Origin: Anaerostipes sp.
GTDB lineage: Bacteria > Bacillota > Clostridia > Lachnospirales > Lachnospiraceae
Length of the DNA stretch: 64,000 bases
Assembly (NCBI GenBank): GCA_028697725.1
Contig: JAQVEG010000001.1
Coordinates: forward strand, 167,516-231,515
Direction of reading: 5' to 3'
Shown piece by piece: positions 4,358-16,202 of the stretch. Within the stretch, counting starts at the first letter, position 1. Every line of letters begins with the position of its first letter. Both the position numbers and the translations under genes were made by a program. The notes under the pieces were generated by a model. That model made no database searches. It saw only the letters and a program-made list of their open reading frames with translations, and had not been told where the DNA came from.

Positions 4358-4429
4358 GGCCCCATGGTCAAGCGGTTAAGACGCGACCCTCTCAAGGTCG
4401 AATCACGAGTTCAATTCTCGTTGGGGTCA
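4358..4429 (+). tRNA. tRNA-Glu (anticodon CTC)
   Basis: Acceptor stem GGCCCCA/TGGGGTC, D-loop TGGTCAAGCGGTTAAGAC, anticodon arm CGACC-CTCTCAA-GGTCG, T-arm ACGAG-TTCAATT-CTCGT; CCA not encoded. Confidence 0.95.
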
Positions 4430-4531: not shown

Positions 4532-5722
4532 CTAAAGTGCTGTTTCATCTGAAAAAATGATATCTGCAAAGTCTGATATTGTCTTTTTCTCTTCCGAACC
4601 TCGAATATGAGCATAGTTGTGTAGGAATGTTTTTACGTCATTTCCCATGATGCTGGAAATGATTTTATCTTGTACACCACGAGAGTAGTTGTTTGTTCCA
4701 AATGTATGTCTGCAATTGTATAAAGGGATTTGAGGTATTCTATCTTTTGGCTTAACTGATTGGCTGTATCTTTCAATCGTTCTACGAAACATCTTTGAAT
4801 AATGGTTAGGGGTTACTGCACCTCCTTCTTCTGTAACAAAAAGAGTATCGGTTGTAAAAAAATCAGGGTATTGAAGCTGTATTTTCTTTTTCCATGTAAG
4901 CGAAGATTTAATTAAGTCGTATAGTGCATCAGGCAGGTAGATAGATCTATGTGACGCTGGTGTTTTTAAGTCAGTAAAATTACCTTGTTTGTCAATTCCT
5001 CTATTAAGCTCTAGTGTATGCAGTTCTTTGTTCAAATCTGTTTCAGCCAGTCCGCATGTTTCTCCTGGTCTTGTCCCCACTAATAAAGAAGTTGCAAACA
5101 TTGCATAATAATGTGATTCTTTTACGATGGGAGAGTTTAAAAAGGCTTGGATTTGCTCGTTAGTCCATGTTATTTTCTTCTTGTATGGCACGTGATTGCG
5201 TTTTATTCCAAGCATGGGGTTCTTGTTAGGCTCAATTACTTTAAGTTCATCTGACGCAAAATTAAAGATGTCACAGAGGATATTAATCATTTTGTTAATG
5301 GTCTCTGGGGAATATGGCTTTCCGTTTTTATTTGTTGTTTCCTGCATTAAGGTTTTAAATTTCAAAATATGAGAGGATTCTATTTTTCTAATGCCAACAT
5401 TCTCAAATACTTCTTTTATGTATCTGTTATAGTAATACTCGTATGTTACTAGGGTGCTGTTTCGATAAAATCCTTTTGAATAAGCGAGCCACTGGTCAGC
5501 AACTTCTCCAAAAAGCATTCCACGTTCTTTTGCGATTTTCTCTTTTTCTTTTCCATTTTTTAATTCCTCCATGATTTCAATTTCATCCTTGGATGCATTT
5601 ATGCGTTTTTCTTGTAATGGTCCAACGATACGTTTTTTTGTTCTGCCATCATAGACAGAAGCGTAGTACCTAGTAGTAATGCTGCCATCTTTTTTTCTGT
5701 AACTTTTCTTTTGTACACTCAT
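4532..5722 (-). CDS. Tyrosine recombinase / phage integrase
   Basis: N-terminal arm-binding-like region, SAM-like middle, catalytic GTRPGETCGL, KT..S.R.I, YNCRHTF, IMGN, YAH. Confidence 0.93.
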   Translation of the reverse strand: MSVQKKSYRKKDGSITTRYYASVYDGRTKKRIVGPLQEKRINASKDEIEIMEELKNGKEKEKIAKERGMLFGEVADQWLAYSKGFYRNSTLVTYEYYYNRYIKEVFENVGIRKIESSHILKFKTLMQETTNKNGKPYSPETINKMINILCDIFNFASDELKVIEPNKNPMLGIKRNHVPYKKKITWTNEQIQAFLNSPIVKESHYYAMFATSLLVGTRPGETCGLAETDLNKELHTLELNRGIDKQGNFTDLKTPASHRSIYLPDALYDLIKSSLTWKKKIQLQYPDFFTTDTLFVTEEGGAVTPNHYSKMFRRTIERYSQSVKPKDRIPQIPLYNCRHTFGTNNYSRGVQDKIISSIMGNDVKTFLHNYAHIRGSEEKKTISDFADIIFSDETAL

Positions 5723-5853
5723 AGAACATCATCCTTTCTAAAGAAGGGTATAAAAAATACACCCTACAATTATTGTTGGATGTATGATATAATTCTAATT
5801 GTTCAGAAGAGAATTATATTAACATCCGTGTTAATAGGTTTCTTTTGCGAAAG

Positions 5854-5881
5854 CAGTCACTTTGCCGAGTGGCTGTTTTTT
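5854..5881 (+). repeat. Cassette repeat copy A (hairpin part only)
   Basis: CAGTCAC-TTTGCCGA-GTGGCTG-TTTTTT; same hairpin as copies B-D. Confidence 0.8.
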
Positions 5882-5901
5882 AAATAGATTAAGTAAAAAA
5901 G

Positions 5902-5934
5902 TTGCATTTTTTTTTACTTAATGTATAATATAAT
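5902..5934 (+). promoter_or_regulatory. Sigma-A-type promoter facing the 3' end of the DUF3644 gene
   Basis: TTGCAT-16 bp-TATAAT, with a second overlapping TATAAT at 5929; no ORF follows on this strand. Confidence 0.65.
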
Positions 5935-5936
5935 TA

Positions 5937-6030
5937 TCAAAGATAACTTGTGAAGGAATAACACTGGGTCCCAGAATGGGGTAAGTACATTATGTACTGA
6001 GCATTCCTATGTGCCTGGGGTTATCTTTTT
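5937..6030 (+). ncRNA. Candidate structured small RNA (possible pseudoknot)
   Basis: Own promoter; closing stem AAAGATAAC/GTTATCTTT plus T-run; inner AGGAAT/ATTCCT stem; AGTACA-TTA-TGTACT hairpin; CCCAG can pair with CTGGG outside the inner stem. Confidence 0.6.
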
Positions 6031-6994
6031 ATTTGCTTCGTTTTAAACTCTCGACAAATTTGTCTGGAGTTTTTTCGATTTCTGATACAATAAATTCAAT
6101 AAATTGTTGTGAATATGTATATTGTTGCTGATTACCAATAATATGTTGATATGCATATTTGGGGTCGTTTTTTATATCGTAGAAATCAATAATAAGGTTT
6201 AATACATAACTATTAAAACCAGAGGAATATCCCAGCTTTATATGCTTTCTTTTTAATCTTTCTTGAATCGCAGTGACAACACTACTATGCGAATATTTAT
6301 GAGTATCTGATGGGTCTTTTACTTCTTTTAGAGTGGTAACCTTTGTATCTGAATCCTTAGAAATACACACTGCAAAATCAGCCTTGTCTCTCTTTTTTGT
6401 TATATATAGATTTTGTCTTATGTTAATTGCAAATTTATCAGAACGTATTTCATCACTTAAAACATCTATTTCATTAGATTGCTTAATGAACTTTTCGGCA
6501 ATTTCAGGACTGTATTTTAATTTGATTTCCTCGTTTGAGAGAGGTTCATATCTCGCTGATATTGTTAGAAAATTTTGTGCAATATATTTAGTAATATCTC
6601 TATTGTGAAATCTTTGAATTTCATTTACAAAGTTAAGAACGCAAGCTTGAAAAAGCGGCGCGTATTTCACCTCATAATCTTCAGTTATATAATGAGTACT
6701 AATATTTCTTAATTCTAATATTTTTTCAAGATTTAATCTGATCCTTGTGTTTTTATCAGAATATATTTTTTTGATTGAGTTTTCTACGCTTAAGGTCCTG
6801 TCAGGTTTATCAGAATAGTAGATGCTTTTTCCACGATTTATAAGCTCGGCTTTTAGCATGAGTTCCCAAGCGTTTACTATAAAGAAAGAAAATCCTTCAA
6901 TTCTGTATTTAATTGTAGGTTTATTGTATATCTCTAATCCTAAAATAAAAGCCTCTATACTTTTGTCAACTAATCTTTCCTTGATATTTTCCAA
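6029..6994 (-). CDS. DUF3644-like protein, predicted HEPN-superfamily RNase
   Basis: Likely TTG start at 6994 after an AAGGCGGG RBS. N-terminus (KSIEAFILGLEIYNKP..YR.EGFSFFIVNAWELMLKA) is typical of DUF3644; RNISTH = RxxxxH motif at 6709-6692. Confidence 0.75.
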   Translation of the reverse strand: MENIKERLVDKSIEAFILGLEIYNKPTIKYRIEGFSFFIVNAWELMLKAELINRGKSIYYSDKPDRTLSVENSIKKIYSDKNTRIRLNLEKILELRNISTHYITEDYEVKYAPLFQACVLNFVNEIQRFHNRDITKYIAQNFLTISARYEPLSNEEIKLKYSPEIAEKFIKQSNEIDVLSDEIRSDKFAINIRQNLYITKKRDKADFAVCISKDSDTKVTTLKEVKDPSDTHKYSHSSVVTAIQERLKRKHIKLGYSSGFNSYVLNLIIDFYDIKNDPKYAYQHIIGNQQQYTYSQQFIEFIVSEIEKTPDKFVESLKRSK

Positions 6995-7111
6995 GTTTAT
7001 CCCGCCTTTCTTTATGTTTAGTATTAATTTCTTCTTAAGTAAAAAATACAATATTCTATTAATGTAACTATATGCGGTAGTAGTAGTAGGGGTGTGAATC
7101 TAATTTTTCCT

Positions 7112-7175
7112 AAAAAAATACTCGCCATGTTACGCATATTACCCGAAAATAACAGAGGCTTGGCGAGTTCCGTTA
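7112..7175 (-). ncRNA. Candidate leader or antitoxin RNA resembling the abiF RNA motif
   Basis: Minus-strand promoter TTGATA-17-TATCCT (7209-7181); 8-bp stem ACTCGCCA/TGGCGAGT enclosing GCCTCT...ATGCGT; T7 tract follows. Confidence 0.5.
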
Positions 7176-7222
7176 CATATAGGATATGATATGCATTTTA
7201 AAATATCAAGATATTTTTGGTA

Positions 7223-8059
7223 TTATAGCTTTATAAGTGCATCGATTAATTCTTTTTCTAAATTCTTTTGTTGTGTTGCAGTTAATTGAGAAGAAGTTCT
7301 TACTATGATAGTTCCTATAACTTTATGCGAACCAGGATTCATCATACCGGTTGAATCAAAAGCAGCAAGGTACTTATTTCTGGTGTCTGCATTCTCTTTT
7401 GTTTTGTAGACTTCTATACAGCCACCGCCATCAGTTCCATTGCCTATAGAATCTTTCCCAGAAAGAAAAGAATGATCAACCTTAGGACTTGAAAAATAAA
7501 TTGCTGCAGTATAACCTCCAGTTTTGTTTAAACTACCATTTGGGTCATTTTTTTCTGTTACCGCTTTAACGTTATTAATGGATTTTATCTTTTTAAGTGA
7601 TGCTAAAACAAACTTTTGTGATGGATTAGTTACTTGCTCCAATTGCTGTATACTTTTGTCTAATTCCGTTGTGCTTTTTTGCAATTCAGATATCTGTTTA
7701 GAATAATCCACACCTTTTTCTAGAATTAAAGTTTCTTTTTTTACAACACTAATTTTTTTGGGGGCATCTGGTACATTGCGTCTAACTTTTTTTGCATTTT
7801 TAATTGAATCCTTTGCATTAGTTATTGTCGATTTTTCGAGTGGCTCTTTCTTTGAATTGATGAGTTTTTGTGCTTTGTTTATGTATCCGTTTAGCTCAAC
7901 ATTTTTTTTGTCAATTTTTTCAGATGCAGCGTTGTATTTGCTAACGGCAATATCATATGGTCTTTTATATGTAAAATACCATACTCCAACAGCTATAATC
8001 AAAACAACAGCAATTCCGATAATAGTAAAGTTTTTCTTTGATGTTCCAGTAGTTTTCAT
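7223..8059 (-). CDS. Membrane-anchored extracellular phage cargo protein (coiled coil plus conserved C-terminal domain)
   Basis: N-terminal TM helix (IIGIAVVLIIAVGVWYF), Lys-rich helical stalk, DPNGSLNK.GGY...GGGCIEVY domain; GGGAGG RBS. Confidence 0.7.
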   Translation of the reverse strand: MKTTGTSKKNFTIIGIAVVLIIAVGVWYFTYKRPYDIAVSKYNAASEKIDKKNVELNGYINKAQKLINSKKEPLEKSTITNAKDSIKNAKKVRRNVPDAPKKISVVKKETLILEKGVDYSKQISELQKSTTELDKSIQQLEQVTNPSQKFVLASLKKIKSINNVKAVTEKNDPNGSLNKTGGYTAAIYFSSPKVDHSFLSGKDSIGNGTDGGGCIEVYKTKENADTRNKYLAAFDSTGMMNPGSHKVIGTIIVRTSSQLTATQQKNLEKELIDALIKL

Positions 8060-8086: not shown

Positions 8087-8159
8087 TTTATTGTAACCTT
8101 AATTTAATCAGTTCTTTATCATATTCAATCAATAGTCACTTTGCAGAGTGTCTGTTTTT
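8087..8159. repeat. Cassette repeat copy B (73 bp)
   Basis: TTTATTGTAACCTTAATTTAATCAGTTCTTTATCATATTCAATCAATAGTCACTTTGCAGAGTGTCTGTTTTT; 2 mismatches to copy D. Confidence 0.92.
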
Positions 8160-8183
8160 TTTTGGATTTTAGTTTAAGAATAA

Positions 8184-9411: not shown

Positions 9412-9473
9412 AATTAGTCCCTCCTTTATATAAATACAATATTTTATAGTTCTATTATAACCAAAATTCAAAA

Positions 9474-9523
9474 GTTTTTTATCATATTCAATTAATAGTC
9501 ACTTTGCAGAGTGACTGTTTTTT
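9474..9523. repeat. Cassette repeat copy C (about 50 bp core, diverged extension to 9454)
   Basis: GTTTTTTATCATATTCAATTAATAGTCACTTTGCAGAGTGACTGTTTTTT; upstream ATTATAACC..AATT.AA aligns with ATTGTAACC..AATT.AA of copies B and D. Confidence 0.88.
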
Positions 9524-9542: not shown

Positions 9543-10247
9543 TCATTTCTTTTCTTCTTTTAAAGATTCTTGATATCCAGCAACAATTATACCTGCTGGC
9601 AATGCAACAATAGCAATTCCTGCAAAGGAAGAAAGCATACTTATGAATCGTCCAATATCAGATAATGGATAGATGTCTCCATAGCCAACAGTTGTTAGTG
9701 AAACAGTAGACCAATAGATTGCCTTGAAAAATGTTCCGAAAGTTTTGGGTTCTACTTGGAAAGCAATTAGAGCAGTTGTAAAAATGTAAATTACTGCAAG
9801 AGCAAAAACTGTAATTAGTTGGTCTTTTTCATGCTTAAAAACATTTACTATAATATGTATATTTTTAGAATATCTAATAGCTTTGAATAATCTAAATGTC
9901 CGACATAGTCTAAGCATCTTTAATGCTTTAAAAGCTGAATTTATAGGAATAAAACTCGGTATAATTGCAAGTAAATCGATAAGAGCTATAGGTTTGAAAG
10001 GATATAAAAAATAAGAAATTACTCCACGCTTTTTTTCTTCATCAGCAGTTATAATTCGCAAAAAATAGTCCACTATAAAAATTGAAACTGTAATTTTATC
10101 GAGTAACAAAAAGATATGTGATTGTTTATAAAAGCATAAAGGAATTATACTTAAAATAATCGTAATCATCATAATGATATCATATATCTTACTGAGAACA
10201 TCATCATCTTTTGCAACTTCTATTATTTGATATATTCTATTTATCAT
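9543..10247 (-). CDS. 6-TM potassium channel-like ion transporter (prophage cargo)
   Basis: Selectivity filter TTVGYGD, S4-like LKMLRLCRTFRLFKAIR, multiple TM helices. Confidence 0.88.
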   Translation of the reverse strand: MINRIYQIIEVAKDDDVLSKIYDIIMMITIILSIIPLCFYKQSHIFLLLDKITVSIFIVDYFLRIITADEEKKRGVISYFLYPFKPIALIDLLAIIPSFIPINSAFKALKMLRLCRTFRLFKAIRYSKNIHIIVNVFKHEKDQLITVFALAVIYIFTTALIAFQVEPKTFGTFFKAIYWSTVSLTTVGYGDIYPLSDIGRFISMLSSFAGIAIVALPAGIIVAGYQESLKEEKK

Positions 10248-10259
10248 TTTAGACCTCGT

Positions 10260-10332
10260 TTTATTGTAACCTTAATTTAATCAGTTTTTTATCATATTCA
10301 ATCAATAGTCACTTTGCAGAGTGGCTGTTTTT
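10260..10332. repeat. Cassette repeat copy D (73 bp)
   Basis: Near-identical to 8087-8159; lies between cI and the K+ channel gene. Confidence 0.92.
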
Positions 10333-10339
10333 AGGGTTT

Positions 10340-10732
10340 TTAATCCACCCCGCTCCTTTTCATGCGTATCAGCATGTCGTGTACCAGTTTTAAGTCCTCG
10401 GGTGATACGTCTTTGCCTGCATCAAATAGAAGTCGTAATTCTTTATTCTCAAATATCTCTTGTGCAATTTTTTTTGTTTCTTTGTTTAAGTAATATGTTG
10501 ATTGTTCTTGTTCTCCTTTATCTTCCATTAAGTCAGACCTATTTATAGAAAAATAATCACATATCATATCAATTTTTTTCATTCGTGGAGTTTTTTCTCC
10601 CCTGCACCAATTAGAAACTGTTGTTTGTGTGACACCTAAATAATCTGCCAAATCCGACTGATTTTTTCCATGAGTTTTTAGCAGCTCAGTAATATTTTTT
10701 GCAATTATTTTATTCAGTTCTTTTTCAGACAT
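10340..10732 (-). CDS. XRE-family HTH phage repressor (cI-like)
   Basis: HTH QSDLADYLGVTQTTVSNWCRGEKTP; sits at the far end of an int-linked module. Confidence 0.85.
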   Translation of the reverse strand: MSEKELNKIIAKNITELLKTHGKNQSDLADYLGVTQTTVSNWCRGEKTPRMKKIDMICDYFSINRSDLMEDKGEQEQSTYYLNKETKKIAQEIFENKELRLLFDAGKDVSPEDLKLVHDMLIRMKRSGVD

Positions 10733-11151: not shown

Positions 11152-11335
11152 TGAAAAAATACAATGCAGTAAAAAGAATTAAAGAAGTAACATCTGGGTT
11201 ATAAACCACTGGCAGACAGTTGTCGGTGGTATTTTTATACGCATTTTTAAGAAAGGAGCAGTTAAAGGGGAGTTTTTTGCTGGCACACCAGTGTCTCTAT
11301 GCTATAATAATTATAGGAGAAAGAGGAGGAATAAA

Positions 11336-12544
11336 ATGACAGAAAGGGTAATATTTCACATTGATGTTAATTCTGCATTTTTAAGCTGGGAGGCAGTCTA
11401 TGGGATGAAAGAACGTGGAGATATTGTGGATTTACGGGAAGCCCCCTCTATTATAGGCGGCGATGAGGCAACGAGGCATGGAATCGTGCTGGCTGCTTCT
11501 ATGCCAGCTAAGCGACTGGGAATTCGAACGGCAGAAACCATTCGAGAAGCACTTGTCAAATGTCCAAACTTAATCATAAAACCACCAATGCGTCCATTGT
11601 ATGAAAAATATTCCAAGGCTTTTGTGAAAGAAGCGTTGGAATATTCTAATGTTTACGAACAATTTAGCATTGATGAAATATTTTTAGATATGACAGGGAA
11701 AATCGAATTAGGAAAGACTCCAGTGGAAACAGCATACAAGCTAAAGGATCAAATTCAAAATAAATTAGGATTTACAGTGAACATTGGTATTTCGTCAAAT
11801 AAACTACTTGCCAAAATGGCATCAGATTTTGAAAAGCCAAATCGGGTACATACATTATTTTTAGATGAAATCAGAGAGAAAATGTGGCCGTTGAAAGTAG
11901 GTGACTTATTTTCTGTTGGAAAATCAACGGGAAAGAAATTAGAAGTGTTAGGGATTCATACCATTGGAGATTTAGCACAGATGGATTTGAAACTGCTACA
12001 GTCACATATAGGAAAGAAGCATGGGAGAAGAATTCACCAGTTTGCCAATGGAATTGATGATAGTAAAGTGGAATCAAGAGGGGATATAAATAAAGGATAT
12101 GGGCATAGTATTACATTATCAAGGGATATTTCAAATGAAAATGAGGCTGGAGTGGTGCTTTTGTCCTTGGTAGAGAAAGTTGCTGCAAGGCTCCGGAGAG
12201 ATCAAGTGAAAGGTGACTGCGTGGTTGTGGAACTTCGCGACAAGGATTTTCATAGGTATACGCATCAAAGAAAGTTAGATGTACCCACAGATATTACCGA
12301 TGAAATTATGAAAACAGCAAGGGAATTGTTTCTAGAATGTTACAAAGGAACACCGGTTAGACTTCTGGGTGTACGTGTCACAGGAATATCAAAAGAAGAA
12401 TATTCTCAAATGGGATTATTCGATAATGAAAAGAAAGAAAAACTCCGAAAGCTTGATGCATCCTTGGATAGAATAAGGCAACGATATGGAAATGATTCCA
12501 TTCAGCGAGGAAGTATATTTTTGCAAAGCGGGAAAGAAGAGTGA
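11336..12544 (+). CDS. dinB: DNA polymerase IV (Y family)
   Basis: FHIDVNSAF, SIDE catalytic motif, SNKLLAKMASDFEKP, C-terminal little finger domain; GGAGG RBS before ATG 11336. Confidence 0.93.
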   Translation: MTERVIFHIDVNSAFLSWEAVYGMKERGDIVDLREAPSIIGGDEATRHGIVLAASMPAKRLGIRTAETIREALVKCPNLIIKPPMRPLYEKYSKAFVKEALEYSNVYEQFSIDEIFLDMTGKIELGKTPVETAYKLKDQIQNKLGFTVNIGISSNKLLAKMASDFEKPNRVHTLFLDEIREKMWPLKVGDLFSVGKSTGKKLEVLGIHTIGDLAQMDLKLLQSHIGKKHGRRIHQFANGIDDSKVESRGDINKGYGHSITLSRDISNENEAGVVLLSLVEKVAARLRRDQVKGDCVVVELRDKDFHRYTHQRKLDVPTDITDEIMKTARELFLECYKGTPVRLLGVRVTGISKEEYSQMGLFDNEKKEKLRKLDASLDRIRQRYGNDSIQRGSIFLQSGKEE

Positions 12545-13571: not shown

Positions 13572-16202
13572 ATGTCAACAAAATGGGTTTATCAATTTAG
13601 TGAAGGTAATGCAGAGATGAGAAACCTTCTTGGTGGAAAAGGAGCCAACTTGGCGGAGATGACTGGATTAGGACTACCAATTCCACAGGGATTTACAGTT
13701 ACTACAGAGGCTTGTACAAATTATTATGATTGTGGGAAGCAAATCAGCGATGAGGTGCAAAAACAGATTAATAAGTACATGAGCGAGTTAGAAGAGATTC
13801 AAGGAAAGAAGTTCGGAGATTTAAACGATCCTTTGCTAGTTTCAGTTCGTTCTGGTGCAAGAGTATCAATGCCAGGAATGATGGATACGATTCTAAATTT
13901 GGGATTGAATGATGTTGCAGTTGAGGGATTTGCAAAGAAAACAGGAAATCCTCGTTTTGCATATGATTCTTATCGTAGATTCATTCAGATGTTTTCAGAC
14001 GTTGTAAAAGAAATCGACAAAGATAAATTTGAACATGCTTTGGATAAGTTAAAGAAAACAAAAGGTGCAAAGTATGATACGGATTTAACAGCAGAAGATT
14101 TAAAAGAGTTGATTGAAAGGTATAAAAAGATCTATAAGAAGGAATTAGGAGAGGAATTCCCTCAAGAACCAAAAGAACAATTGTTAGAAGCAATTAAAGC
14201 AGTATTTAGATCATGGGATAATCCAAGAGCTATTTACTATAGAAGAATGAATGATATTCCAGGAGACTGGGGAACAGCTGTTAATGTTCAAACCATGGTA
14301 TTTGGTAATATGGGTGATACTTCTGGAACAGGAGTTGCATTTACAAGAAATCCTTCCACAGGTGAGAAGCATATTTACGGAGAGTATTTGATTAATGCTC
14401 AAGGAGAAGATGTAGTTGCTGGAGTTCGTACTCCTTTGCCAATTACAAAATTAAAAGAAGATTTGCCAAAGTGTTATGAGCAGTTTATGGAGATTGCCAC
14501 AACACTTGAGAATCACTACAGAGATATGCAGGATATGGAATTTACAATTCAAGAAGGAAAGTTATATTTCCTACAAACAAGAAATGGAAAGAGAACTGCT
14601 CCAGCAGCACTTCGCATTGCTTGTGAATTAGTAGATGAGAAGATGATTACAAAAGAAGAGGCTGTTTCAAGAATCGAAGCAAAAGCATTAGATCAATTGT
14701 TACATCCAAACTTTGATCCAGAAGCGATTAAGGCAGCAGTTGAGATTGGATCTGCGCTTCCTGCATCTCCAGGAGCTGCAGCAGGTAAGGTTTATTTTAC
14801 AGCTGATAGTGCAAAACTTCATCATGAAGCAGGTGAGAATGTTATCTTAGTTCGTTTAGAAACATCACCAGAAGATATTGAAGGAATGCATGCAGCAGAA
14901 GGTATTCTAACAGCTCGTGGTGGTATGACAAGTCATGCAGCCGTTGTTGCTCGTGGAATGGGTACTGCTTGTGTTGCTGGATGTGGAGATATTTCAATCA
15001 ATGAAGCAAAAGGAAACTTTACATTAGGTGGAAAGACAATTCGTGAGGGAGATTATATTTCTTTAGATGGATCTACAGGTAAGATTTATCTTGGAGAAGT
15101 TCGTACAATTCCTGCAAGCATTAGTGGTAATTTTGACCGCATTATGACATGGGCGGATGAGATTCGTGACTTACAAGTTCGTACCAATGCAGATACACCA
15201 GCAGATGCATTAAATGCAGTTAGATTTGGAGCTCAAGGAATTGGACTTTGTCGTACAGAGCATATGTTCTTTGATCCAGAGAGAATTCCAAAGATTCGTC
15301 GTATGATTCTTTCTAAGACAACAGAAGCTAGAGAGATTGCATTGAATCAATTGATTCCTTATCAAAAGAAAGATTTTAAAGAATTATATGAAGTTATGGA
15401 AGGAAAACCGGTTACTATCCGTTTCTTAGATCCACCACTACATGAATTCTTACCTACATCTGCCGAAGATATTTCAGCACTTGCAGCAGATATGGGAGTT
15501 ACAGTAGAAGAGATTAATATTCGTCGTGCAGGTTTACATGAATTTAACCCTATGATGGGACATCGTGGATGCCGTCTTGCAGTTACATATCCTGAAATTG
15601 CAAAGATGCAGACAAGAGCCGTTATGGAAGCTGCAATTGAAGTAAAACAAGAAAAAGGGTATGATATTGTACCAGAAATCATGATTCCATTAGTAGGAGA
15701 AAAGAAAGAATTAGCGTTCGTAAAAGAAGTTGTTGTTGCAACTGCTGAGAAAGTTAAAGATTACTATGAATCAGATATTGAATATAAGATTGGAACAATG
15801 ATTGAGATTCCACGAGCTGCTCTTTTAGCAAATGAAATCGCAGAAGAAGCTGAGTTCTTCTCATTTGGTACAAATGATTTAACTCAGATGACATTTGGTT
15901 TCTCTCGTGATGATGCTGGTAAGTTCTTAGATTCATACTATGATAATAAGATTTATGAGTCAGATCCATTTGCAAGATTGGATCAAAGCGGTGTTGGACA
16001 ATTAATTGACATGGCAGCGAAAAAAGGACGTTCTGCACGCCCAGATATTCACTTAGGTATTTGTGGAGAACATGGAGGAGATCCATCTTCTGTAGAATTC
16101 TGCCATAGAGTTGGACTAAATTATGTATCTTGTAGTCCATTTAGAGTACCAATCGCAAGATTAGCGGCAGCACAAGCTGCATTAGCTTATCCAAGAAAAT
16201 AA
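13572..16202 (+). CDS. ppdK: Pyruvate, phosphate dikinase
   Basis: LLGGKGANL, VSVRSGARVSMPGMMDT, phospho-His TSHAAVVAR, FSFGTNDL, ICGEHGG; 876 aa. Confidence 0.97.
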   Translation: MSTKWVYQFSEGNAEMRNLLGGKGANLAEMTGLGLPIPQGFTVTTEACTNYYDCGKQISDEVQKQINKYMSELEEIQGKKFGDLNDPLLVSVRSGARVSMPGMMDTILNLGLNDVAVEGFAKKTGNPRFAYDSYRRFIQMFSDVVKEIDKDKFEHALDKLKKTKGAKYDTDLTAEDLKELIERYKKIYKKELGEEFPQEPKEQLLEAIKAVFRSWDNPRAIYYRRMNDIPGDWGTAVNVQTMVFGNMGDTSGTGVAFTRNPSTGEKHIYGEYLINAQGEDVVAGVRTPLPITKLKEDLPKCYEQFMEIATTLENHYRDMQDMEFTIQEGKLYFLQTRNGKRTAPAALRIACELVDEKMITKEEAVSRIEAKALDQLLHPNFDPEAIKAAVEIGSALPASPGAAAGKVYFTADSAKLHHEAGENVILVRLETSPEDIEGMHAAEGILTARGGMTSHAAVVARGMGTACVAGCGDISINEAKGNFTLGGKTIREGDYISLDGSTGKIYLGEVRTIPASISGNFDRIMTWADEIRDLQVRTNADTPADALNAVRFGAQGIGLCRTEHMFFDPERIPKIRRMILSKTTEAREIALNQLIPYQKKDFKELYEVMEGKPVTIRFLDPPLHEFLPTSAEDISALAADMGVTVEEINIRRAGLHEFNPMMGHRGCRLAVTYPEIAKMQTRAVMEAAIEVKQEKGYDIVPEIMIPLVGEKKELAFVKEVVVATAEKVKDYYESDIEYKIGTMIEIPRAALLANEIAEEAEFFSFGTNDLTQMTFGFSRDDAGKFLDSYYDNKIYESDPFARLDQSGVGQLIDMAAKKGRSARPDIHLGICGEHGGDPSSVEFCHRVGLNYVSCSPFRVPIARLAAAQAALAYPRK

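Follow-up and report, generated by a model that had tools for sequence, protein, structure and literature searches.

A conserved small RNA gene converging on a DUF3644–REase-like nuclease gene: a predicted RNA off-switch in mobile elements

What, if anything, restrains a HEPN nuclease whose gene sits next to a phage-type integrase and has no recognisable antitoxin gene at its side? The question is raised by a locus of Anaerostipes sp. (assembly GCA_028697725.1), analysed here in a window of 64,000 nucleotides (nt) from contig JAQVEG010000001.1 (positions 167,516–231,515 of the forward strand; all coordinates below are those of the window). An initial annotation, made from the letters and their open reading frames (ORFs), had proposed a new RNA-antitoxin defence system in which a 321-amino-acid (aa) DUF3644-like HEPN RNase is bracketed by two structured RNAs in the int-cI cargo slot of a prophage. 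Our comparative analysis points to a putative two-part mobile defence module, in which a nuclease with DUF3644-HEPN and REase-like domains (PDC-S19) would be paired with a small RNA (sRNA) of ~99 nt encoded on the opposite strand.

The convergent RNA and the nuclease

The sRNA gene lies on the plus strand at 5936–6034 (covariance-model match of 109.7 bits) and converges on the nuclease gene, which occupies 6029–6994 of the minus strand. Its five helices, P1 (5941–5949/6018–6026), P2 (5954–5956/6014–6016), P3 (5962–5968/6006–6013), P4 (5969–5973/5977–5981) and P5 (5984–5988/5994–5998), are followed by a terminator U-run at 6027–6034 that overlaps the nuclease stop codon (6029–6031). A sigma-70-type promoter is predicted on the same strand at 5902–5929, with TTGCAT at 5902–5907 and TATAAT at 5924–5929 separated by 16 nt. 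Both signals recur among 141 distinct copies of the RNA: 127 of them have, at the same place, a promoter that matches at 9 or more of 12 positions (23 of 141 on the control strand), 70 of the 127 with a perfect TATAAT, and a T-run of at least five follows the closing stem in 125. The downstream RNA of the initial annotation, drawn at 5937–6030, is thus upheld together with its own promoter and T-run.

The structure is carried by comparison. Across 101 covariance-model matches, corresponding to 87 distinct sequences, 98.9% of the cells pair, as against 34–50% in slid controls; compensatory double changes occur in 14 of the 28 pairs (120 cells), and none of 500 shuffles reached the observed pairing or covariation values. 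In the alignment of loci the compensatory changes fall in the closing stem and in one variable hairpin. RNAalifold finds the five helices and 28 pairs on the plus strand at −21.6 kcal/mol and −13.0 kcal/mol for the gene strand. The same set of pairs gives 463 Watson–Crick, 94 G-U and three mismatched cells when read on the plus strand, compared with one G-U and 96 mismatches on the gene strand, a count biased toward the plus strand, where the pairs had been predicted, and for which the independent fold of the gene strand serves as the control. The balance of G-U pairs and mismatches favours the plus strand, and hence an RNA convergent with the nuclease gene. Folded singly, the sequence does not stand out (z = −1.7 to −2.4), so it is the comparative evidence that argues for the reality of the sRNA. 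Certain unpaired nucleotides are invariant, for example the segment UGAGCAUU after P5, as are some G-U pairs. A search of Rfam 15 with a 126-nt stretch gave no match to the sRNA at E values up to 10, and the copies from Streptococcus and Staphylococcus phages likewise had no match in Rfam. From these sequence comparisons, the sRNA is well supported as a new, apparently undescribed family of structured RNA.

An alternative identity, the attC site of an integron cassette, was considered and rejected. Its cores would read RYYYAAC/GTTRRRY, and the closing stem reads AGATAAC/GTTATCT (GAC/GTC at one locus); the interior shows high conservation where an attC site would vary, the G-U pairs assign the structure to RNA from a single strand, and the genes nearby encode tyrosine or serine recombinases of phage type instead of an IntI integrase, next to a tRNA gene in the window and at some other loci. 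Separately, a weak Rfam match to RsaF of S. aureus at 5846–5932 on the plus strand (24.3 bits where the cut-off is 60; E = 0.29) spans the AT-rich promoter region of the sRNA and is probably due to chance. Variant RNAs at four loci (L030, L054, L091 and L163) keep only the three-way-junction core of P3, P4 and P5 and have different, GC-rich outer helices. In the three loci scanned with the covariance model they score 29.8–31 bits at positions 27–77, and in L091 a large serine recombinase gene converges on the variant at a distance of ~110 nt. The present model may thus capture only part of the family.

The nuclease gene has a TTG start preceded by the ribosome-binding site (RBS) AAAGGCGGG. Its 321-aa product combines DUF3644 (PF12358, residues 7–177; 186.5 bits against a cut-off of 27.6, E = 4.5e-55) with a C-terminal EC042_2821 REase-like domain (PF18740, residues 227–318; 112.6 bits against 24.9, E = 1.4e-32), the latter overlooked in the initial annotation. 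The Rx4-6H motif typical of HEPN is present as R96-N-I-S-T-H101, and R96 and H101 are invariant in 19–20 aligned relatives, down to 21–26% identity. That DUF3644 belongs to the HEPN superfamily, as the initial annotation had stated, agrees with the literature, where it was placed there as the 'EC042_2821' family, with REase-domain fusion and presence in restriction-modification (R-M) operons also recorded (Anantharaman 2013, PMC3710099). The predicted fold agrees as well: in a Foldseek search of the Protein Data Bank (PDB) with an AlphaFold2 model (pLDDT 78), the top 23 matches were HEPN or HEPN-related chains, the best being HepT-type HEPN toxins, of which the first, 5yep_B, had a probability of 0.99 and a TM score of 0.58 at a weak E value of 0.076. 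A sequence search of the PDB with the protein returned no match, and Pfam gave none to Abi_2 (PF07751). A possible PD-(D/E)xK site, assigned by eye, comprises D206 and K226, conserved in the clade, with E or D at position 224; these residues lie just before the PF18740 match in a segment modelled at pLDDT < 50 and are not kept in a 26%-identical relative.

The protein is not new in itself. PADLOC model PDLC04952 for PDC-S19 matches over the full length (residues 2–320, E = 5.5e-146), eight more PDC-S19 models also match, and PHROGs assigns the protein to phrog_9605, of unknown function. These profile matches place the nuclease in an already catalogued family, PDC-S19 being listed as a candidate defence system. 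It shares with the EC042_2821/DUF3644 family and PDC-S19 the same two domains, the Rx4H motif and the full-length match, as well as the occurrence in R-M operons, prophages and defence islands. However, the family is catalogued as a single gene and the accessible literature mentions no RNA partner, whereas the clade described here, at 47% identity or more, has one and is alone in this; among open-access papers and bioRxiv, a search for 'PDC-S19' and 'EC042_2821' found only the 2013 paper, and PDC-S19 itself nowhere. Two DUF3644 relatives with different C-terminal domains have been characterised by experiment: HEC-08 acts in defence, which is lost when the HEPN histidine is mutated, and Ishtar acts against plasmids, causing their loss.

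Linkage, other partners and carriers

Loci chosen by protein similarity alone carry the sRNA without exception. In 19 genomic loci from Lachnospiraceae, Lactobacillaceae, Enterococcus, Staphylococcus, Fusobacterium and Paludibacteraceae, the ~90–108 nt after the stop codon match the window in all 19 at 79–92% identity, above the 68–75% identity of the nuclease gene DNA across the same loci. A protein-first scan of IMG/VR yielded 268 relatives, and among the best 80 of these (47–80% identity) each of the 77 with room for the sRNA has it immediately beyond the stop codon, on the opposite strand; its bit score drops as the protein diverges. Some 10 of the 99 protein-first loci have a disrupted nuclease ORF next to an intact sRNA (L012, L014, L016, L019, L240, L269, L285, L286, L296 and L302, truncated or broken, with sRNA scores of 61–112 bits), and no nuclease gene of the clade, intact or broken, lacked the sRNA where the record had room. 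Intact RNAs beside broken genes, together with the lack of genes without the RNA, fit an antitoxin or immunity role. On this sequence record the sRNA is an obligatory companion of the nuclease clade at 47% identity or more. The neighbourhood survey that the initial annotation had called for thus finds the downstream RNA throughout and the upstream one in none of the related loci compared. As a side observation, the proviruses L287 (418–1388) and L168 (8315–11668) each have three tRNA genes near the nuclease–sRNA locus, all three clustered upstream of the nuclease gene in L287.

The partnership is binding on the nuclease and not on the RNA. A scan for the core motif picked out 69 stretches of viral and at least 118 of metagenomic DNA, and its 187 sites comprised 126 with a convergent nuclease gene, 8 without room and 53 with something else, the last group holding ~40 true copies of the sRNA, a few chance matches, two sites (L061 and L074) that are a CRISPR spacer, and the 4 variant RNAs. 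At gaps of 25 nt or less the sRNA converges on genes for PDC-S22/KilA-N, AbiD/Abi_2 and NYN nuclease proteins; at ~76 nt it converges on a GHKL ATPase gene that adjoins a Dcm methylase gene. It also abuts bPH_3-SHOCT and DUF4352 genes convergently, and an AbiL-like ATPase gene lies on its own strand. Many of these copies are 95–100% identical to nuclease-linked ones, and such near-identical RNAs beside different cargo suggest recent cargo exchange at this boundary. The sRNA is not exclusive to the HEPN protein. Of the initial proposal that the downstream RNA is the nuclease's partner, the constant association within the clade stands and exclusiveness does not, given the unrelated genes that it abuts. 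Within a sample of 401 genomes of the phylum, 5 have the sRNA, 10 a DUF3644 gene and 3 both, adjacent to each other, so that 2 of the 5 sRNA-positive genomes are without DUF3644.

On the 5' side of the sRNA, 136 distinct neighbours include 58 tyrosine integrases, 12 large serine recombinases, 10 HsdS and 4 Abi_2 proteins, and the site is an integrase-proximal cargo slot of prophages or satellites, or a defence island. An RNA specific to integrases was ruled out, since recombinases make up only about half of the 5' neighbours and themselves fall into two unrelated families. Several hundred copies of the sRNA were found in Bacillota, Fusobacteriota and Bacteroidota. Named carriers comprise 28 Streptococcus records, mostly of the 'satellite phage Javan' type (e.g., Javan9 of S. 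agalactiae A909), 17 Staphylococcus records, including StB20-like, S-CoN_Ph18-25 and B_UFSM4/5, and two Listeria phages. The StB20-like phage (L209, NC_028821) holds two copies, at 584–678 and 2414–2511, one convergent on the DUF3644 gene gp57 and the other ending 20 nt from the stop codon of gp54, a 'CapA family protein' gene.

Other structured RNAs known to Rfam, namely FuFi-1, 6A and SpF66, lie within ~2 kb of the sRNA in integrase-proximal regions (L122 2447–2669; L077 5681–5731 and 5995–6210), and the slot seems to be rich in structured RNAs. In two metagenome contigs (L061 and L074) a CRISPR array with the repeat GATCACCCCCGCGGATGCGGGGAC includes the spacer CACTGGGTCCCAAAATGGGGTAAGCAACTATATG, which matches the core of the sRNA gene and suggests that some host has targeted elements with this RNA.

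The upstream hairpin and the island

The second RNA of the initial annotation, placed at 7175–7112, did not hold up as part of the system. A hairpin followed by U7 does fold on the minus strand at 7113–7168, but no better than shuffled sequences (z about −1.3), and the upstream flank was conserved neither in the 19 homologue loci (BLAST) nor in 40 relatives. Because it sits where the upstream 278-aa gene (7223–8059) needs a terminator, it is probably the intrinsic terminator of that gene. Its sequence does show some likeness to the abiF RNA family. A single sub-threshold Rfam match (RF03085) at 7120–7167, the best in the whole 2.9-Mb genome, reaches 18.9 bits where the gathering score is 37, with E = 1.46 genome-wide, and the segment CGCCAAGCCUCU equals the family consensus throughout (12 of 12 positions).

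A genuine abiF-class leader or antitoxin RNA of the HEPN gene, as a two-RNA model needs, would have the correct strand and place, inside the 228-nt leader of the nuclease gene, and the order of promoter, hairpin with U-run and gene is that of RCd22-abiF, in which RCd22 neutralises the HEPN toxin AbiF_Cd of the C. difficile phage phi027 (Saunier 2025, bioRxiv 10.1101/2025.04.15.648962). We nevertheless consider this unlikely: to the low score, the shuffle-level fold and the place suited to a terminator is added that there is one motif instead of two, that the protein is not an Abi_2 protein, and that searches of 50 related viral records and of 2.1 Mb of related loci, as well as BLAST of the flanks, turned up no similar motif. 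A relic or divergent abiF-type leader is likewise a doubtful prospect. To judge by these comparisons, the hairpin is a local feature of this genome, separate from the nuclease–sRNA module, and the bracketing of the nuclease by two RNAs reduces to an upstream element specific to this locus.

The setting is that of an island. Divergent from the sRNA lies a tyrosine integrase gene (4532–5722, minus strand; Pfam Phage_integrase and Phage_int_SAM_3), adjoined by tRNA-Glu(CUC) at 4358–4429 on the plus strand (ARAGORN and Rfam), the probable integration site of the island. A duplicate of the tRNA-Glu 3' end (attR) was not found within the window. On the other side a cI-like helix-turn-helix gene occupies 10340–10732. 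The int-cI position given by the initial annotation is thus confirmed by the integrase beside tRNA-Glu and the cI-like gene, but 'prophage' is too loose a word: the pyruvate phosphate dikinase gene begins at 13572, and of the ORFs that precede it none was identified as a phage structural gene, which makes the cargo region a small integrase island or remnant. The earlier statement that no antitoxin protein adjoins the nuclease gene agrees with our result, with neither an MNT nucleotidyltransferase nor another recognisable antitoxin protein next to it and no Pfam match for the 278-aa product.

The same small island also carries an ion-channel gene (Pfam Ion_trans and Ion_trans_2) at 9543–10247 and, beyond the cI-like gene, a 417-aa ORF at 11291–12544, a candidate Y-family DNA polymerase gene from the look of its sequence. 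Between its minus-strand cargo genes a hairpin with a T-run, AGTCACTTTGCAGAGTGACTGTTTTTT in plus-strand reading, is repeated at 5855–5881, 8134–8160, 9497–9523 and 10307–10333, with 73-nt versions at 8087–8159, 9450–9522 and 10260–10332. One copy stands directly upstream of the sRNA promoter, and on the plus strand the repeat resembles a terminator for antisense transcription.

Possible modes of action and their meaning

The most likely function of the convergent sRNA is, we predict, that of an RNA off-switch of the nuclease, and it probably acts as one. The starting points are directly established, namely the protein domains, the structure and strand of the sRNA, the promoter and terminator signals and the strict linkage. 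With the stop codon only a few nt from the closing stem, the nuclease mRNA would have to carry the sRNA complement: no terminator separates the nuclease gene from the sRNA gene, and the 3' end of the mRNA would bear the complement in full. An abundant sRNA would pair with this 3' extension, convergent transcription may add interference, and RNase III, as it occurs in Firmicutes, would cut the sRNA–mRNA duplex, keeping nuclease expression low. Infection or prophage induction, the trigger that we infer, would lower the sRNA and raise nuclease output, and the HEPN RNase and REase activities, which we take to be toxic, would then abort infection. Antisense pairing is favoured over direct protein binding, and the recurrence of the convergent geometry with unrelated partner genes favours a mechanism based on position. 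A cis-antisense, type-I-like off-switch of nuclease expression is accordingly our tentative choice of mode, held at somewhat less than an even chance.

Several points weigh against this choice. Expression of the sRNA and read-through of the nuclease mRNA are themselves predictions. Pure antisense action needs neither the invariant unpaired nucleotides nor the invariant G-U pairs, features suggestive of a protein that recognises the RNA or of a tertiary fold. No enrichment of complementarity between the sRNA and the 5' region of the nuclease gene was found. Seven genomes with distant DUF3644 genes (24–34% identity) had no sRNA, even with search filters off. The accessible parts of the descriptions of HEC-08 and Ishtar, with their defence and plasmid-loss activities, mention no RNA partner, and for these proteins constitutive toxicity is not a given. 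Pairing in trans with the 5' untranslated region or RBS of the nuclease gene was also tried as a mode of action and rejected (mean z = −0.05; median energies of −18.1 kcal/mol for cognate and −18.6 kcal/mol for non-cognate combinations).

The invariant single-stranded segments, UGAGCAUU after P5 among them, and the invariant G-U pairs would be better accounted for by a type-III-like antitoxin or cofactor, whose three-way junction would bind the HEPN–REase protein and either block or license it. The slower evolution of the sRNA relative to the protein gene, the complete linkage with the protein clade, the antitoxin-like decay pattern and the HEPN–RNA precedents AbiF/RCd22 and AbiV/abiV2 all agree with such binding, which is possible, if on the unlikely side. 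It has to contend with RNAs of 95–100% identity to DUF3644-linked copies that abut genes for unrelated proteins (KilA-N, NYN, bPH_3-SHOCT and DUF4352) or lie ~125 nt from the end of an aroA gene, and with a single-copy, 3'-convergent arrangement that contrasts with all known type III antitoxins. It is unlikely, too, that the sRNA stands for a new class, a portable, single-copy, protein-binding antitoxin or immunity RNA whose three-way junction would gate the HEPN-RNase/REase-DNase and which PDC-S22, AbiD and NYN systems would have recruited as well.

The same portability can be read without any regulatory tie to the nuclease. The sRNA gene could belong to the cargo slot as a general-purpose element, serving as bidirectional terminator and antisense-promoter insulator and tied to the nuclease by common descent alone; it would keep lysogenic transcripts from running on into the integrase or adjacent genes, and its conserved sequence would permit cargo swaps by recombination. 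Integrases of two unrelated families make up 70 of the 136 distinct 5' neighbours, identical RNAs stand beside different cargo genes, the StB20-like phage has two copies capping two different genes, and FuFi-1 and 6A occur in the same regions. Yet a terminator or insulator needs no five covarying helices or near-invariant loops kept across phyla, the sRNA accompanies the nuclease gene also where no integrase is present, e.g., beside HsdS, methylase and Abi_2 genes, and complete linkage down to 47% identity exceeds what a shared slot would lead one to expect; both the insulating role and the recombination role are in our judgement quite unlikely. Improbable, finally, is a trans-acting sRNA with host or phage targets, or one that binds a host protein, a prophage regulator or decoy to which the nuclease would be a mere neighbour. 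The strong promoter and terminator of its own and the conserved structure would suit such an RNA, as would the lack of the nuclease at about a quarter of the pattern-first matches and in 2 of the 5 RNA-positive genomes of the phylum sample, but strict co-occurrence and co-divergence with one protein clade speak against it, orientation and abutment are constant, and no candidate targets were identified.

Known systems offer partial parallels to the antisense off-switch and to its rivals. In the type I pairs txpA/RatA and bsrG/SR4 of Bacillus prophage-like elements, the two genes converge and overlap at their 3' ends and control depends on RNase III; the toxins are small membrane peptides, and the antitoxin RNAs are known to be conserved only in narrow taxa. 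Judged from sequence, the geometry here would fit such a pair, with a convergent RNA whose terminator overlaps the stop codon, whereas the partner is a 321-aa two-domain nuclease instead of a small hydrophobic peptide and the RNA is conserved across phyla. The type III systems ToxIN, CptIN, TenpIN and AbiQ share the theme of an RNA antitoxin to an endoribonuclease in abortive infection. However, their antitoxin RNAs precede the toxin gene as tandem repeats, which the toxin processes, in contrast to a single-copy RNA downstream on the opposite strand, and no tandem repeats of this kind flank the nuclease gene.

The closest functional analogue is AbiF_Cd/RCd22, a prophage HEPN toxin with a structured RNA of ~100 nt under its own promoter. 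RCd22 lies upstream on the same strand, contains two abiF motifs and is co-transcribed by read-through with the gene of an Abi_2 toxin, whereas the sRNA here is 3'-convergent and differently folded, and the protein is DUF3644 plus REase. Tha-1 and Tha-2 of S. aureus phages are HEPN RNases in the int-cI slot with an inhibitor gene, ith, placed antisense within the operon (Rostol 2024, PMC11087260). They share with our locus the slot of Firmicutes prophages, the HEPN domain and the antisense placement of an inhibitor gene, which the sRNA gene is here predicted to be, but their inhibitor is a protein, and they have their HEPN domain at the C terminus and lack a REase domain. In Lactococcus, the HEPN RNase AbiV forms an RNA–protein pair by binding the abiV2 hairpin (bioRxiv 10.1101/2024.05.05.592566); abiV2 is upstream on the same strand and has no likeness in sequence or structure to the convergent sRNA.

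The protein family was already known, and what is apparently new is the convergent RNA gene and its linkage to the nuclease. PDC-S19 is listed as a single-gene candidate; if the convergent RNA is needed, cloning of the ORF alone could mislead in two ways, giving unexplained toxicity or unregulated expression. As carriers of the sRNA occur in tractable hosts such as Streptococcus, Staphylococcus and Listeria, the idea of an RNA antitoxin for HEPN nucleases is directly testable. The finding extends the case of AbiF and RCd22 and suggests that HEPN effectors may be under RNA control more generally, through more than one architecture.

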